Shown piece by piece: positions 3,374 through 7,813 of a stretch of DNA of 64,000 bases; position 1 is the first letter of the stretch; the number at the start of each line of letters is the position of its first letter. This DNA is from a virus, in the IMG/VR virus record IMGVR_UViG_3300025645_000042, positions 32,001-96,000 of that record, one strand, 5' to 3'. Position numbers and translations under genes: made by a program. A model generated the notes under the pieces. That model did not search any database. It had not been told where the DNA came from and saw nothing but the letters and a program-made list of their open reading frames with translations.

Positions 3374-4819
3374 TTGAGTAAACAAAAAAATCCTATTAAA
3401 CGTATCGAATTTTTGGCTAAGAAATTTGATGTCTTCGATGATGAAGACCTTGATAAATTGGTTAAGAAAGACTTTTACTTGTCAAATAATGAACAGTATG
3501 AACATTTATATAATATAAAGGACACTGGTGAAAACCAGTTATATGCTTTATATACATTTAACCAACGTTTATTAAAAAATACTGGTGCTAAGGTTCCAAA
3601 GAAAATTAGGATTGCTGATTTTGTTTTTATTGATGTTGTTCAAAACGACCCGACTGAACATAAAGAATATGTTCAATGGATGTTGACGACATTTACTAGA
3701 TTGATAAAAGAGAATGAATTAATGCAAGCGTTAATGTTTGTTAGCGAGGATTTATGGTTAGCTTCTGATTATCTTGAGGTATTTCATAAGAATAGACATA
3801 AACCAAAGTTTAAAGCAATGTGCAGACGTAATTTAGCGTTTGCTAATATTACTGACCCATCAGATATTAATCAGTATAGGGATTTATCCCAATTATTTGA
3901 TGCAGTTGACCCTTTTATTGAAAAGGACGTTAGTAAATTGGAAAGGGATATTAGGATTATGGCCAAGTTAAAGCATGGTGCCATTCCTTACGAAGATAGA
4001 TATGTAATAATTTTCAATCCAATTACGATTAAAGCTAGTAGGTTATTTGCAAAATTAACCAATTGGTGTACCACATCTAATAAAGATACTCATAAGAGTT
4101 ATATTAAGAATTATAAAACACCAACGGGAAAAAAGAGTACATTACATGTACTTATTTTTAAAACATATTTGTTAGAAGATGGTAATCCTAATAAAACTGA
4201 TGATATTTATCAATTTCATTTTGAAAGTGGTCAATTTATGAACAGAAAAGATGGAAGAATTAAAGATATTCCATCGTTGATTAGTGGTAATATTGGGTTA
4301 AAAAAATACTTTTACAATTCATTGGTTAAATTGACCATGGAGTGTAAATTTAATAAATTAAATAACAAGTATATAAATGCGTTATTCGAATTTGGATTTG
4401 TTGATGTAATATTTGAGATATATCCAGATGACACTAAACAATTAAGGTTTCATGGATTTAATATATCTGAAACCCCAGATATTAGTAAATTTAGTAACTT
4501 AAAATTATTATATTTAGTTAATTGTAAGTTAGAAAGAATAGACCCAAGTGTGGGAGCATTAAAAGAGTTAACTATGTTAACGTTAACTAATAATAAATTA
4601 AAAACTATACCCAAGACTATTGGTAATTTAAAAAAGTTAAGGGTATTATCTTTAACTGGTAACTCGATAAAGGGTTTACCTGAAGAATTAGGTCAATTAG
4701 ATAAAGCTAACGGTGGTTCACTGGAAATTTTATCAGTTGATAATGAATTGTTTGAAGAGGCTAGTGAATTATTTCCTAGTATAATTGTAAATCAATTCGA
4801 TAAAATAATGAGTAAATAA
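3374..4819 (+). CDS. leucine-rich-repeat protein with an uncharacterised N-terminal phage domain
   Basis: C-terminal LxxLxLxxNxLxxIP repeats (LTMLTLTNNKLKTIP, LRVLSLTGNSIKGLP); N-terminal NWCTT...YQFHFESGQFMN; TTG start. Confidence 0.8.
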   Translation: MSKQKNPIKRIEFLAKKFDVFDDEDLDKLVKKDFYLSNNEQYEHLYNIKDTGENQLYALYTFNQRLLKNTGAKVPKKIRIADFVFIDVVQNDPTEHKEYVQWMLTTFTRLIKENELMQALMFVSEDLWLASDYLEVFHKNRHKPKFKAMCRRNLAFANITDPSDINQYRDLSQLFDAVDPFIEKDVSKLERDIRIMAKLKHGAIPYEDRYVIIFNPITIKASRLFAKLTNWCTTSNKDTHKSYIKNYKTPTGKKSTLHVLIFKTYLLEDGNPNKTDDIYQFHFESGQFMNRKDGRIKDIPSLISGNIGLKKYFYNSLVKLTMECKFNKLNNKYINALFEFGFVDVIFEIYPDDTKQLRFHGFNISETPDISKFSNLKLLYLVNCKLERIDPSVGALKELTMLTLTNNKLKTIPKTIGNLKKLRVLSLTGNSIKGLPEELGQLDKANGGSLEILSVDNELFEEASELFPSIIVNQFDKIMSK

Positions 4820-4876: not shown

Positions 4877-5410
4877 ATGGAATTAAAAGACATGATTTGG
4901 AAGAGGGTACACCACGGTGATATCAAGGAACCATTAGTTGATTATTTAGAAAAAATAATCGATGAGCAACACGAAATAGGTAATAAACTTAAAATCTGTG
5001 TTGGTACGGATTCACAAAAAAATGGTAAAGGGTTTAAATACGCAACTGCTATTATAATTGAAATGAAATCCCCCGTTAATATGGGTGGTGGTAATATTGT
5101 TTATAAAGGTATTGGGGCTAAAGTAATTTCTGGTGTTTTCACTGAAAAACGAAAACCTACTATAAGAGAAAGGATGTTAAAAGAAGTTCAAATGTCTATT
5201 AATGTTTGTTTTCATATACTTGATTTAGTTGAATTATATGATATTGACATGGAAATCCATGCTGATGTTAATCCTAACCCAATGTGGGCATCTAATGTTG
5301 CTCTTACAGAGGTTGTAGGTTTCTGTAAAGGTATGAACTTTACATATAAAATTAAGCCCGACGCATATGCCGCAAGTTCGGGAGCCGACAGGCTCTGTAA
5401 TGGAGGATAA
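4877..5410 (+). CDS. RNase H-like YkuK (DUF458) family protein
   Basis: VGTDSQ, EIHADVN, KPDAYAASSGAD motifs. Confidence 0.8.
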   Translation: MELKDMIWKRVHHGDIKEPLVDYLEKIIDEQHEIGNKLKICVGTDSQKNGKGFKYATAIIIEMKSPVNMGGGNIVYKGIGAKVISGVFTEKRKPTIRERMLKEVQMSINVCFHILDLVELYDIDMEIHADVNPNPMWASNVALTEVVGFCKGMNFTYKIKPDAYAASSGADRLCNGG

Positions 5411-5414
5411 TCAT

Positions 5415-5440
5415 AAAAAGCACCCAATGGGTGCTTTTTT
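5415..5440 (+). terminator. intrinsic terminator
   Basis: AAAAAGCACCC-AAT-GGGTGCTTTTT. Confidence 0.85.
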
Positions 5441-5475
5441 ATTCCCAATTTTAAGGTAAATCAAATTAATTTTTG

Positions 5476-5483
5476 TATATTTG
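5476..5483 (+). promoter_or_regulatory. Bacteroidota-type -7 element TATATTTG upstream of the Gly-rich array
   Basis: TAnnTTTG 18 nt before the first ATG of the array. Confidence 0.6.
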
Positions 5484-5501
5484 TAATAATATAAGAAACA
5501 T

Positions 5502-5708
5502 ATGAATATAAAGATTTCAAAGGGTACTGCTTGTGGTTCTGGTTATGGTTCTGGTAGAGGTAATGGTTCTGGTTATGGTAATGGTTCTGGTACTGCTTCT
5601 GGTTCTGGTTATGGTTGTGGTAATGGTAATGGTAATGGTTGGGGTGATGGTTATGGTAATGGTAGAGGTTCTGGTAATGGTAGAGGTTATGGTTATGGTA
5701 TAGGTTAA
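5502..5708 (+). CDS. Gly-X repeat peptide, array unit 1 (68 aa)
   Basis: MNIKISKG leader then Gly at roughly every second residue. Confidence 0.75.
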   Translation: MNIKISKGTACGSGYGSGRGNGSGYGNGSGTASGSGYGCGNGNGNGWGDGYGNGRGSGNGRGYGYGIG

Positions 5709-5720
5709 AAAATAAAACAT

Positions 5721-5840
5721 ATGAATATAAAGATTTCAAGAGGTTATGGTAGAGGTTCTGGTTATGGTTCTGGTTCTGGTACTGGTACTGGTTGGGGTGA
5801 TGGTTCTTGTGGTTATGGTTATGGTGATGGTAATGGTTAA
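5721..5840 (+). CDS. Gly-X repeat peptide, array unit 2 (39 aa, absent from the ORF track)
   Basis: read by hand: MNIKISRGYGRGSGYGSGSGTGTGWGDGSCGYGYGDGNG-stop. Confidence 0.75.
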   Translation: MNIKISRGYGRGSGYGSGSGTGTGWGDGSCGYGYGDGNG

Positions 5841-5852
5841 AAAATAAAACAT

Positions 5853-6107
5853 ATGAATATAAAGATTTCAAGAGGTGAGGGTAATGGTGATGGTGGTAAT
5901 GGTTGGGGTGATGGTGATGGTGATGGTTCTGGTAATGGTTATGGTGGTTATGGTTATGGTTATGGTAATGGTAATGGTTCTGGTTCTGGTGATGGTTCTG
6001 GTTCTGGTTGGGGTGATGGTAATGGTAATGGTAATGGTTATGGTAGAGGTTCTGGTGATGGTAATGGTTCTGGTGATGGTTCTGGTAATGGTTCTGGTAT
6101 AGGTTAA
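5853..6107 (+). CDS. Gly-X repeat peptide, array unit 3 (84 aa)
   Basis: MNIKISRG leader, Gly-X body. Confidence 0.75.
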   Translation: MNIKISRGEGNGDGGNGWGDGDGDGSGNGYGGYGYGYGNGNGSGSGDGSGSGWGDGNGNGNGYGRGSGDGNGSGDGSGNGSGIG

Positions 6108-6119
6108 AAAATAAAACAT

Positions 6120-6374
6120 ATGAATATAAAGATTTCAAGAGGTAATGGTAATGGTTCTGGTTATGGTTATGGTGCTGGTTCTGGTGATGGTTCTGGTTCT
6201 GGTTGGGGTGATGGTAATGGTTTTGGTTCTTGTGGTTATGGTTATGGTAGAGGTTCTGGTTATGGTGATGGTTCTGGTAATGGTAATGGTTCTGGTTCTG
6301 GTACTGGTTGGGGTAGAGGTGTTGGTGGTTATGGTAATGGTGATGGTAGAGGTTATGGTGATGGTAATGGTTAA
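6120..6374 (+). CDS. Gly-X repeat peptide, array unit 4 (84 aa)
   Basis: MNIKISRG leader, Gly-X body. Confidence 0.75.
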   Translation: MNIKISRGNGNGSGYGYGAGSGDGSGSGWGDGNGFGSCGYGYGRGSGYGDGSGNGNGSGSGTGWGRGVGGYGNGDGRGYGDGNG

Positions 6375-6386
6375 AAAATAAAACAT

Positions 6387-6677
6387 ATGAATATAAAGAT
6401 TTCAAGAGGTAATGGTTCTGGTTATGGTTATGGTTATGGTAATGGTGTTAGTTCTGGTTCTGGTGATGGTTCTGGTTCTGGTTCTGGTGGTTATGGTTAT
6501 GGTAGAGGTTATGGTAGAGGTTCTGGTTATGGTTATGGTAATGGTTCTGGTTATGGTAATGGTGATGGTAATGGTGGTAATGGTTGGGGTGATGGTTATG
6601 GTTATGGTTATGGTTATGGTAATGGTGATGGTTCTGGTAATGGTGATGGTGGTGGTAATGGTTATGGTAATGGTTAA
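6387..6677 (+). CDS. Gly-X repeat peptide, array unit 5 (96 aa)
   Basis: MNIKISRG leader, Gly-X body. Confidence 0.75.
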   Translation: MNIKISRGNGSGYGYGYGNGVSSGSGDGSGSGSGGYGYGRGYGRGSGYGYGNGSGYGNGDGNGGNGWGDGYGYGYGYGNGDGSGNGDGGGNGYGNG

Positions 6678-6740: not shown

Positions 6741-6953
6741 ATGACAGATAAAAACACAAAAGTAATTAAAATTAACGAGTCAAAACTTGTTGATATGATT
6801 AACGATATTGTTGAAGCAACTATAGTCGAAAGAAATTTAGTTCCAGCTGAAACCAAAAAAGTTTCTAAACCTATTAAGAAAAGAGTAACTGAATCTCAGT
6901 TAAGAGCTTTACAAGCTAAGGGAGCTAAAATCAACAGTATTAAAAAAATATAA
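6741..6953 (+). CDS. small basic protein, probably late/virion
   Basis: ATATTTAT at 6716-6723; KINESKL and RVTESQL motifs. Confidence 0.65.
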   Translation: MTDKNTKVIKINESKLVDMINDIVEATIVERNLVPAETKKVSKPIKKRVTESQLRALQAKGAKINSIKKI

Positions 6954-6973: not shown

Positions 6974-7001
6974 AAAACCGTCTCTTCAGATGGTTTTTTT
7001 T
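6974..7001 (+). terminator. intrinsic terminator
   Basis: AAAACCGTCT-CTTC-AGATGGTTTT plus T run. Confidence 0.8.
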
Positions 7002-7018
7002 ATTTACTTATTTTAAAA

Positions 7019-7813
7019 TTGTTTTATCTTTTTTTCATGAAAGATAAAATTATTCTACCTGTAGGGAAGGCACATCAAAGAGTTATTAGGGAACAAAAAG
7101 AACTAGAAGAAAAACAATCTGGGGAAATACCAATTTGGGAATCCATCAACAGGGATATTTCAAATGCAGTGGTGAAACCAATAGAGCGTTCCTTAGCGAA
7201 GAAAATTGTTGAGGAATATGAATGGTTAGGTTGTATGCCAGCGTTCAGCAAATACCAGTTTGGCATCTTCTATGACGATGTTTGCGCTGGTGTTACAGTA
7301 TTTGGTACTGATTACATTGAAAATTTAGGTCATTGGGATAAATATTATTATACTGGACGTATGCTTTTATTGAGTAGAGGTGTTTGTGTTCATTGGGCAC
7401 ATCCACATTCTGGCAGTAAGTTAATTATGGAAAGTATAAAGCAACTTCCAAAGGAATATGATGTGATAACCGCTACAATTGACCAAGCAGCTGGTGAAAT
7501 TGGTACCATATATCAGGCTTGTAATTTCACATACATTGGTAGTATGCGTGAGAATAATCCAAAGATAAAGAATAAGAATCCAAGAGATAGGTTTGGTGTT
7601 AGAATTAATGGTAAGATTTATGGCCCTAGAGCTATGAGAACTAAAATTGGTAGTCAGAGAAAGGAAGAGATTTTAAAACACTTCCCAGATGCCGAATTCA
7701 TACCACAATTTAATAAACATAGATACTTTTATTTTTTAGGTAGTAAGAATAATAAGAGATTCTTGAAGAAACAGATTGAGCATATGATTAAACCTTATCC
7801 AAAGAGAAGTTAA
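7019..7813 (+). CDS. Mom-like adenine modification enzyme (GNAT fold); likely start ATG 7037
   Basis: IVEEYEWLG...FGIF...GVTVFG and DQAAGEIGTIYQACNFTYIG resemble the Mu Mom family. Confidence 0.7.
   Translation: MFYLFFMKDKIILPVGKAHQRVIREQKELEEKQSGEIPIWESINRDISNAVVKPIERSLAKKIVEEYEWLGCMPAFSKYQFGIFYDDVCAGVTVFGTDYIENLGHWDKYYYTGRMLLLSRGVCVHWAHPHSGSKLIMESIKQLPKEYDVITATIDQAAGEIGTIYQACNFTYIGSMRENNPKIKNKNPRDRFGVRINGKIYGPRAMRTKIGSQRKEEILKHFPDAEFIPQFNKHRYFYFLGSKNNKRFLKKQIEHMIKPYPKRS

Follow-up and report, generated by a model that had tools for sequence, protein, structure and literature searches.

Five small genes in tandem at positions 5502-6677 of the window, the 64,000-nucleotide (nt) stretch of DNA analysed here (positions 32001-96000 of the 119-kb IMG/VR record IMGVR_UViG_3300025645_000042, CheckV completeness 33%), encode microproteins in which a constant leader precedes a hypervariable body of glycine alternating with other residues (Gly-X). 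Judged by their architecture and by relatives with the same leader, the units appear to belong to a phage family, so far undescribed, whose members usually accompany a Sm-like protein. The reading favoured for the whole, at a rough probability of 0.45, is that early in infection they would join RNA-protein assemblies as multivalent partners of low complexity. The analysis shows that the genes are real, that by architecture they fall into this family, how they evolve and that relatives have the Sm-like link; disorder is predicted. The window is AT-rich (GC content ~30%) and the large terminase of the phage is T4-like, with ~30% identity to the terminase of Flavobacterium phage immuto. This likeness and the CheckV completeness together indicate that the record is a fragment of an uncultured marine jumbo phage with a genome of roughly 350 kb; the host group is most likely the Bacteroidota.

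All five units lie on the plus strand. Unit 1 (5502-5708, 68 amino acids (aa)) starts with MNIKISKG, and units 2 (5721-5840, 39 aa), 3 (5853-6107, 84 aa), 4 (6120-6374, 84 aa) and 5 (6387-6677, 96 aa) start with MNIKISRG, the leader being followed in each by (G-X)n. The same five lengths and leader had been reported in a preliminary description of the locus and were re-derived here, except that its start at 5476 is that of a promoter box and not of the first ATG (5502). Net charge spans +4 (unit 1) to -6 (unit 3). Each of the five genes ends in TAA, and the four junctions (5706-5744, 5838-5876, 6105-6143 and 6372-6410, plus strand) are copies of a 39-nt repeat, 100% identical throughout, that consists of the TAA, an A-rich 12-nt spacer AAAATAAAACAT and the 24-nt leader; the identical stop and spacer noted earlier thus extend across the leader. 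All unit starts share one frame with a single TAA between successive units, as the preliminary description had it.

The bodies comprise 331 codons in total, 165 of them GGT, and the X codons are dominated by TCT (38), TAT (36), AAT (35) and GAT (21), followed by AGA (10) and TGG (7), so that T is the final base in 94% of body codons. All 165 glycine codons are GGT and 38 of 39 serine codons TCT, against 67% and 30%, respectively, in 39 long open reading frames (ORFs) of the same phage, and Tyr, Asn and Asp are written exclusively as TAT, AAT and GAT. This pattern is far beyond chance, since it departs so widely from the phage's own usage, and because general codon bias cannot yield one codon per residue it indicates a recent amplification of a few hexamers differing by single bases. 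The resulting composition is G 50%, S 12%, Y 11%, N 11%, D 6%, R 3% and W 2%, with Cys rare (1.2%). Codon counts and a motif check also bore out the hexamer-type bodies, the glycine ends and the GWGDG motif claimed for every unit: the C-terminal residue is Gly and GWGDG is present in all five, and W is followed by G-D in six of seven cases (P = 4e-5 against the local background).

A body of the form (GGT NNT)n leaves three frames open by construction, namely the Gly-X frame, a +2 frame (GTN NNG) that reads as 'MVLV' and one minus-strand frame (CNN NAC) that is free of possible stops, so open frames alone prove nothing and relatives must decide. The +2 'MVLV' ORFs were rejected as a mechanical outcome of the repeat. 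A 314-aa His/Asn/Gln/Tyr ORF on the minus strand (5461-6405) is likewise mechanical and not a gene, and is broken in relatives on TARA contigs.

Relatives were found by pattern scans for the leader plus one profile match (P0035), and the search of phage metagenomes suggested in the preliminary description was productive: arrays of 3 to 16 same-leader units occur in at least five other uncultured marine phage lineages. The IMG/VR contigs L001-L003, L013 and L015 belong to one phage with six units. The TARA contigs L009 and L010 are syntenic with the window (62-92% aa identity across ten neighbouring genes), the TARA contigs L011 and L014 were also recovered by the leader pattern, and a 342,785-bp TARA scaffold with two arrays of three units (L034) was reached through P0035. 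A further metagenome match, L012, was set aside as a chance match. Across 185,579 prokaryote genomes the leader pattern gave chance single matches only, without glycine tails, and no cellular genome among those scanned carries the family. Searches of cultured phages by megablast and tblastn with the low-complexity filter on returned nothing for the locus or for a unit, and a word-based protein search returned one weak match.

The leaders of 31 distinct units from six sources and at least four lineages were compared. Their consensus is M-N-I-K-x-S-x-G, with replacements clustered at positions 5 and 7, and their codons change synonymously (AAT/AAC, AAG/AAA, ATT/ATA, TCA/TCG, GGT/GGA/GGC). In the TARA arrays glycine is GGT in ~77% of cases, with GGA and GGC besides, and serine is written as both AGT and TCT. 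These arrays keep the two-residue period only imperfectly and have a broken minus-strand frame, yet the ATG, the leader and the Gly-rich frame are intact in each unit. Across lineages ~60 copies keep the ATG, leader and open frame, one frameshifted copy excepted. Because ATG, leader and frame are kept amid synonymous change and the alternative frame is broken, it is near certain from these comparisons that the units are under protein-level constraint, that is, that they are real genes. The constant leader with fast-changing low-complexity bodies described at the outset is therefore a property of genuine small genes whose leader persists in divergent relatives, and a neutral microsatellite expansion, the explanation raised against it, is ruled out by the same retention of ATG, leader and frame in homologous loci.

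The two three-unit MNIKIS-type arrays of L034 (L034:1692-6650) are situated within a cluster of phage transfer RNA (tRNA) genes for Ser-GCT, Arg-TCT, Met, Ser-GGA, Met, Arg-CCT and Arg-ACG. There is no tRNA-Gly among them; the Ser and Arg tRNAs decode codons used by the arrays, and the gene call for the first unit runs into the tRNA-Ser. A supply of tRNAs as the cause of the codon pattern was rejected for the window, as the 119-kb record contains no tRNA genes. One unit, at L034:5709-5991 and L035:5710-5991, is intact at 93 aa in one of these two assemblies and frameshifted at 47 aa in the other; either the repeat was misread in sequencing or a broken copy is tolerated.

The bodies change much faster than their surroundings. 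The gene upstream of the array (4877-5410, plus strand) encodes an RNaseH-like protein (PF04308, E = 9e-27) and is the syntenic neighbour of the array in L009 and L010; its product is 88-90% identical between the window and these contigs, yet the bodies cannot be aligned. An abrupt divergence between L009 and L010 inside unit 1 may reflect real strain variation or an assembly break at a contig end and was not counted as evidence. The nearly identical contigs L040, L041 and L042 differ in their second array, which holds four units in L040, eight in L041 and eight in L042. L040 contains a chimeric unit that agrees with unit d over its first 171 nt (95%) and with unit g over nt 56-300 (97%), and relative to L042 it has lost three units, two between d and g plus one further unit; L041 has a 53-codon in-frame deletion in unit g. 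Because these contigs differ by a chimera, lost units and an in-frame deletion, it is near certain, as judged from their sequences, that unequal recombination between paralogous units together with slippage alters unit number, length and sequence. Recombination between units, as proposed earlier, is thus seen in natural relatives, a layout built for diversification being a conjecture beyond this, and the comparison of unit number and core sequence among relatives, also proposed there, found that both vary. Unit lengths range from 28 to 103 aa across arrays, and junctions stay uniform within each array.

The main rivals to the favoured reading are hypervariable decoys, weighed further on, and neutral over-amplification, in which a single Gly-X gene does the work and the surplus copies, like their hexamer content, arose by runaway slippage and unequal crossing-over, neither number nor diversity having a selected role. 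The use of one codon per residue, which marks a very recent expansion at the DNA level, is what such a process would leave, and the frameshifted L034 unit, the in-frame L041 deletion and the wide range of lengths show that changes of this kind are tolerated. The explanation is nevertheless quite unlikely, in that ATG, leader and open frame are kept in nearly all of the ~60 copies, every related lineage retains arrays, of as many as 16 units, and the synonymous changes in the leader point to purifying selection on many copies.

No family in Pfam, NCBIfam or PHROG matches the units. An AlphaFold2 model built from a 26-sequence alignment reached a predicted local distance difference test (pLDDT) score of 29.4 with zero secondary structure. 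An ESM Atlas model of a relative reached a pLDDT of 0.37, and the nearest clusters (30 of 30) are unnamed and viral, with 57-107 members. The units are accordingly predicted by these models to be intrinsically disordered. They have no hydrophobic segment or signal peptide, and for want of a hydrophobic segment no export signal. A profile search of 1.8 billion representatives gave 247 matches, mostly composition-driven, of which only P0035 is a clear member, and a profile search against PDB sequences retrieved linkers, poly-GR and RGG tails only. The sequence features of the FUS/hnRNPA1-like class, a functional class and not a homologous family, are present: a Gly/Ser/Tyr/Asn-rich composition, predicted disorder, and aromatic and Arg stickers. 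Of the options first listed for the units, the [G/S]Y[G/S]-type low-complexity reading fits the composition and the absence of a predicted fold. The Gly-X microprotein layout, a short non-repeat N-terminus followed by (Gly-X)n in less than about 150 aa, is found in all five units, and also in L047, L048 and the cultured phages NK-7, Pappous and PhiPLPE discussed below.

Another reading is an ordered glycine structure, such as a polyglycine-II bundle of the kind in gp38 adhesins or snow-flea antifreeze, or a silk-like beta-sheet, serving as a virion, adhesive or ice-binding component; polyglycine-II or ice-binding surfaces were among the options of the preliminary description. The strict glycine alternation does resemble the (G-X)n of silk fibroin, the NK-7 homologue is annotated 'fibroin heavy chain-like', the phage is T4-like and the samples are marine; T4-type gp38 adhesins moreover carry glycine-rich motifs (PMC3157838). 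Such a structure is very unlikely given the pLDDT of 29 and the AlphaFold2 model without secondary structure, the lack of a match to gp38 or any other Pfam family, an X that is mostly bulky or charged and not Ala or Ser only, and the placing of the array behind an early-type promoter and distant from the structural module of the phage at 15.5-35 kb. A gp38-type adhesin in particular was rejected, the units being only 39-96 aa with no Pfam match and no predicted fold. The snow-flea antifreeze repeat, for its part, has a period of three, not two.

The layout of Gly/Ser/Cys-containing cores behind a constant N-terminus also led the preliminary description to consider ribosomally synthesized and post-translationally modified peptides (RiPPs), and tandem multi-copy precursor layouts are known for RiPPs. 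On this account the units would be bacteriocin-like precursors, similar to microcin B17 or to glycine-rich antimicrobial peptides, released at lysis. Microcin B17 precursor McbA is likewise a small Gly/Ser/Cys-rich ribosomal peptide behind a leader; it requires that leader of 26 aa and the McbBCD (YcaO-type) synthetase, neither of which the window array has. YcaO (PF02624) and radical SAM (PF04055) proteins are absent from the 119-kb record, with positive controls, as is the C39 export peptidase (PF03412), and none of them adjoins the arrays of relatives, where no modifying enzymes were found either; the earlier remark that no modifying enzyme is adjacent is correct. The leader has 8 aa, against the ~15-30 aa with a recognition or GG-cleavage motif of RiPP leaders, the units lack a signal peptide or hydrophobic segment, Cys makes up 1.2% and no NCBIfam precursor family matches at E <= 1. 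A RiPP identity is on these grounds extremely unlikely.

The Sm-like link, the main clue from context and one that the preliminary description lacks, comes from relatives in which the array or a Gly-X gene stands beside a gene for a DUF6948 protein. A model of the L003 DUF6948 protein from 32 homologues had a pLDDT of 93.6, and its top 50 PDB matches were all Sm/LSm proteins (Foldseek E ~2e-3, probability 1.00, target TM-score <=0.78), so that DUF6948 is predicted to be Sm-like, with an RNA-chaperone fold. Same-leader arrays flank DUF6948 in L003 and L040-42. The L003 array begins 9-12 nt after a sigma-70-family gene, as in L011, and is followed by the DUF6948 gene; in L040-42 the order is sigma-70, eight units, DUF6948, a 241-aa gene, an 80-aa gene and then four to eight further units. 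In L043, ~15 units with variant leaders surround DUF6948. Single Gly-X genes directly follow DUF6948 in L036 (P0007), L047 (26 aa, ...KIHNSSG...) and L048 (84 aa, MAGINSSG...). The same pair is present in cultured phages: Ralstonia phage NK-7 (XCO36016, DUF6948, then XCO36015, a 137-aa Gly-X protein annotated 'fibroin heavy chain-like protein'), Pectobacterium phage Pappous (CDS0033, DUF6948, then CDS0032, Gly-X, 53 aa) and Iodobacter phage PhiPLPE (gp84, DUF6948, then an unannotated Gly-X ORF of ~85 aa, L049:1170-1440). The cassette partners begin with similar motifs (MAGINSSG, ...KIHNSSG, ...NIEVNSG). The pairing of DUF6948 with Gly-X genes is real and wide, though not universal. No paper mentioning DUF6948, such arrays or the gene pair was found in the literature, and the pair is annotated only as hypothetical.

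The members of these pairs resemble the window units in having a short N-terminus that ends in S-x-G or similar, followed by (G-X)n with X mostly Ser, Tyr, Asp or Asn, and in being small, phage-borne and without a family match. The window differs in its five copies, its own terminator and promoter, its position after the RNaseH-like gene and the lack of DUF6948 within 119 kb. Arrays apart from DUF6948 are found after the RNaseH-like gene (window and L009/L010) and among tRNA genes (L034).

Several further features were observed around DUF6948. In jumbo-phage lineages it travels with two further conserved genes, with products of 80 aa (...STNTH...VIKITQQEYNPIL...FD) and 234-241 aa (...CWCTST..EHWLW...IKHIIRQGDVFLFEM); the loci of DUF6948 and its conserved neighbours are L040:5001-6303, L043:5001-5621, L045 and L046:3001-4274 and L001:1287-2573. 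The 'MEMDMEMEM...' gene calls at L047:3382-3483 and L048:3559-3822 come from reading the Gly-X gene in the wrong frame. Fused forms (P0003, P0007, P0034 and P0096; L036:5001-5915) combine a helix-like N-terminal leader of the '...NIEVNSG' type, a (G-X)n stretch 60-120 aa long and, at the C-terminus, a conserved domain of ~170 aa (...IDDIP...CFIAK..N.FAHG.T.KEA...WH..LTGSC..GR..F). For this domain, in P0003, P0007 and P0096, searches of Pfam, PHROG and PDB found no relative, and it is not related to the 238-aa gene beside DUF6948 in L001.

The array has control signals of its own. The RNaseH-like gene ends in an intrinsic terminator (5415-5445, plus strand) made up of an 11-bp hairpin (5415-5439) and a U run. 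The hairpin folds at -14.6 kcal/mol (z = -4.15), its stem is identical in L009 and L010 and a further copy lies 5' of the second array in L009. It is followed at 5472-5483 (plus strand), 18 nt 5' of the first ATG, by a promoter-like motif TTTGTATATTTG, the Bacteroidota-type -7 box of which (TAnnTTTG; TATATTTG at 5476-5483) is conserved, like the hairpin, in L010 and in two copies in L009. The terminator ahead of the cassette and the separate host-type promoter motif of the preliminary description were thereby recovered. The -33 element is weak at the array, the motif also precedes a different gene in L034, and no repeated class of such motifs was found within the window; that the motif functions as a promoter is what we infer from its sequence and position. 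No terminator separates the array from a Lys-rich 70-aa ORF (6741-6953, plus strand; no Pfam or PHROG match), and since the next terminator-like hairpin with a T run (6974-7005, plus strand), the probable end of the transcription unit, lies after that ORF, the 70-aa ORF probably shares a transcript with the array. Array and ORF would then probably form a free-standing promoter-to-terminator operon. In L009 the control region (terminator hairpin, TTTTGTATATTTGT box and leader; L009:1960-2045) is duplicated with the second array, after unrelated genes of 125 and 134 aa, a duplication which suggests that the array can spread as a block of terminator, promoter and units.

The sharing of one frame by the units had raised the prospect of a read-through polyprotein. 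A related reading is a DNA or RNA element, such as a G-rich repeat, the variable region of a diversity-generating retroelement (DGR) or a CRISPR-like array, in place of five separate proteins. Junctions of the MNIKIS subfamily keep the frame in 29 of 30 cases (spacers of 6, 9 or 12 nt), and the 94% of body codons with a final T might also speak for this rival. The 12-nt spacers of TARA relatives, however, hold a second in-frame TAA (for example TAA ATA TAA GGT ATT ATG), the trace that would be expected of a nonsense substitution 5' of an old stop. One junction is out of frame with a 4-nt spacer, and frames are random in the sister lineage L043, the leaders of which are MIIDSxG, MKIESFG and MIKESKG. 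Taken together, these junctions look like stop-codon shifts by substitution and not like selection for read-through. A DGR variable region was rejected, as reverse transcriptase (PF00078) is absent from the 119-kb record and unit lengths differ, whereas in a DGR the template repeat and the variable region are equally long. No Rfam family reaches its gathering score, with sub-threshold matches over the terminator only, and the leader is conserved at the protein level. Read-through or an element function is thus most improbable, and the polyprotein in particular is not supported. Initiation regions in Bacteroidota are A-rich, and independent or re-initiated translation proceeds in this group from A-rich spacers without a Shine-Dalgarno sequence; the A-rich spacers of 4-12 nt, in which within the window no Shine-Dalgarno sequence is present, would fit either.

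The favoured reading can then be stated as a sequence of events, of which we infer the timing, the binding and any condensate or RNA role. Five separately initiated genes would be expressed from one transcript with its own promoter, A-rich 12-nt spacers, probably the 70-aa ORF, and a terminator. The gene has been amplified to five copies, away from any Sm-like partner in the sequenced third of the phage; slippage of hexamers and unequal recombination between units shape the bodies, and leader and junction stay uniform across the array. Expression would be early in infection, in view of the host-type -7 box and of the L003 and L011 arrays just behind a sigma-70-family gene. The proteins might act in the infected cell as 'sticker-and-spacer' chains, with Tyr, Trp, Arg and Asp as stickers on a glycine backbone; the short leader may dock the chains, most likely to the Sm-like protein or to RNA, and the chains could build or tune RNA-protein assemblies during host takeover, the multiple copies providing dose and a spread of charge from +4 to -6. 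A bolder version is that low-complexity tails, borne in cis by eukaryotic Sm/LSm proteins, are in phages the products of separate, freely amplifiable genes: the MNIKIS leader would dock to a DUF6948 ring, Tyr/Arg/Asp-studded glycine chains would drive RNA-protein condensates as a viral counterpart of the P-body type, recombined charge variants would tune them, and the array in the window would be an independent early operon. This version is speculative and rather improbable.

Several observations weigh against the favoured reading. DUF6948 was not found in the 119-kb record by the Pfam model, phmmer or a custom profile (the Pfam control was positive in L001-L003; the record is ~33% complete), and because of this the partner link is indirect for the array in the window. 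Two of the eight DUF6948 lineages sampled (L045 and L046) have no Gly-X gene within 3 kb. The case for homology between the MNIKIS units and their cassette counterparts is built on shared architecture and a brief N-terminal motif (I-x-x-S-x-G), profile matches being dominated by composition. Single copies may also be dispensable, given the frameshifted unit of L034/L035.

The absence of a partner gene from the record suits the other main rival, in which the units are arms-race effectors or decoys without a Sm-like partner. On that view these hypervariable early microproteins, with the array as a source of variants, would capture, saturate or misdirect a host factor such as a protease, chaperone or defence sensor. 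Bodies that diverge far faster than the flanking genes, copy numbers and chimeras that vary between near-identical contigs, an early-type promoter and charges of +4 to -6 would all be expected of such proteins. This rival is judged unlikely: no match to a defence or anti-defence family was obtained (PADLOC was not among the resources searched), specific recognition is less to be expected of low-complexity sequence, and the rival gives no account of why DUF6948 recurs as a neighbour in other phages.

Glycine-rich tails are known from Sm, LSm and Hfq proteins, among them the Arg-Gly repeats of SmD1/SmD3, the tail of LSm4 and the GGFGGQ-repeat C-terminal domain of Acinetobacter Hfq. There, as in the phage pairs, a protein of the Sm fold, which the DUF6948 model matches, is associated with a disordered glycine-based repeat; in the phages the repeat is one or more separate polypeptides, rich in Tyr/Ser/Asp/Asn and not in Arg or Gln, and a role with RNA would be by analogy. 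The prion-like domains of FUS and hnRNPA1/A2 and the glycine-rich domains of plant GRP7/GRP2 form a comparison class (PMC5927716, PMC11239674, PMC13261584) that shares Gly with Ser/Tyr/Asn/Asp/Arg, [G/S]Y[G/S] motifs, predicted disorder and a sticker-and-spacer layout. The phage-encoded units differ in their strict period of two, their length of 39-96 aa and in being free-standing without an RNA-binding domain. One viral cluster in the ESM Atlas has KRTAP on 16% of its members. Tandem Gly/Tyr-rich arrays occur in animals as high-glycine-tyrosine keratin-associated proteins and C. elegans NLP/CNC peptides; like the phage arrays they are multi-copy loci with small products that evolve fast by repeat gain and loss, but there is no homology, and the animal peptides are secreted or structural whereas the phage units lack a signal peptide. 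Particular to the window are the apparent promoter-to-terminator operon, the lack of a nearby partner and the extreme single-codon bodies.

Other genes near the array include one for a 481-aa protein with C-terminal leucine-rich repeats (LRR_8, LRR_4, LRR_14) at 3374-4819, two genes 5' of the array, a leucine-rich-repeat protein being unusual in a phage early region. A thioredoxin gene (2149-2463) also lies 5' of the array, and a Mom-like DNA modification protein (PF25680, E = 2e-25) is encoded at 7019-7813, just 3' of the array transcription unit. Beyond the window, positions 104896-119104 of the record encode very large proteins of 2361, 918 and >631 aa with a repeated domain of ~45 aa (...RYSLTGHTH...), which is common to these giant proteins and to a 1218-aa protein adjoining the sigma factor gene in L011 (L011:3099-6755); the giant proteins are probably tail-fibre-like.

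Gene callers and low-complexity filters miss or mis-frame Gly-X genes, as in PhiPLPE, L047 and L048, and for this reason such genes are systematically under-reported in phage annotation. Even if its function should prove mundane, the array is a clear natural case of concerted junction evolution beside hypervariable bodies. Should the proposed role be true, the units would represent phage effectors of a widespread class not described so far: dipeptide-repeat proteins that stand free, are linked to a Sm-fold protein and occur in phages of Bacteroidota, Pseudomonadota, Chlorobi and others. They would then provide a simple bacterial system for low-complexity glycine/tyrosine chains in cells, and would show how hexamer-repeat genes evolve by slippage and unequal recombination under selection.

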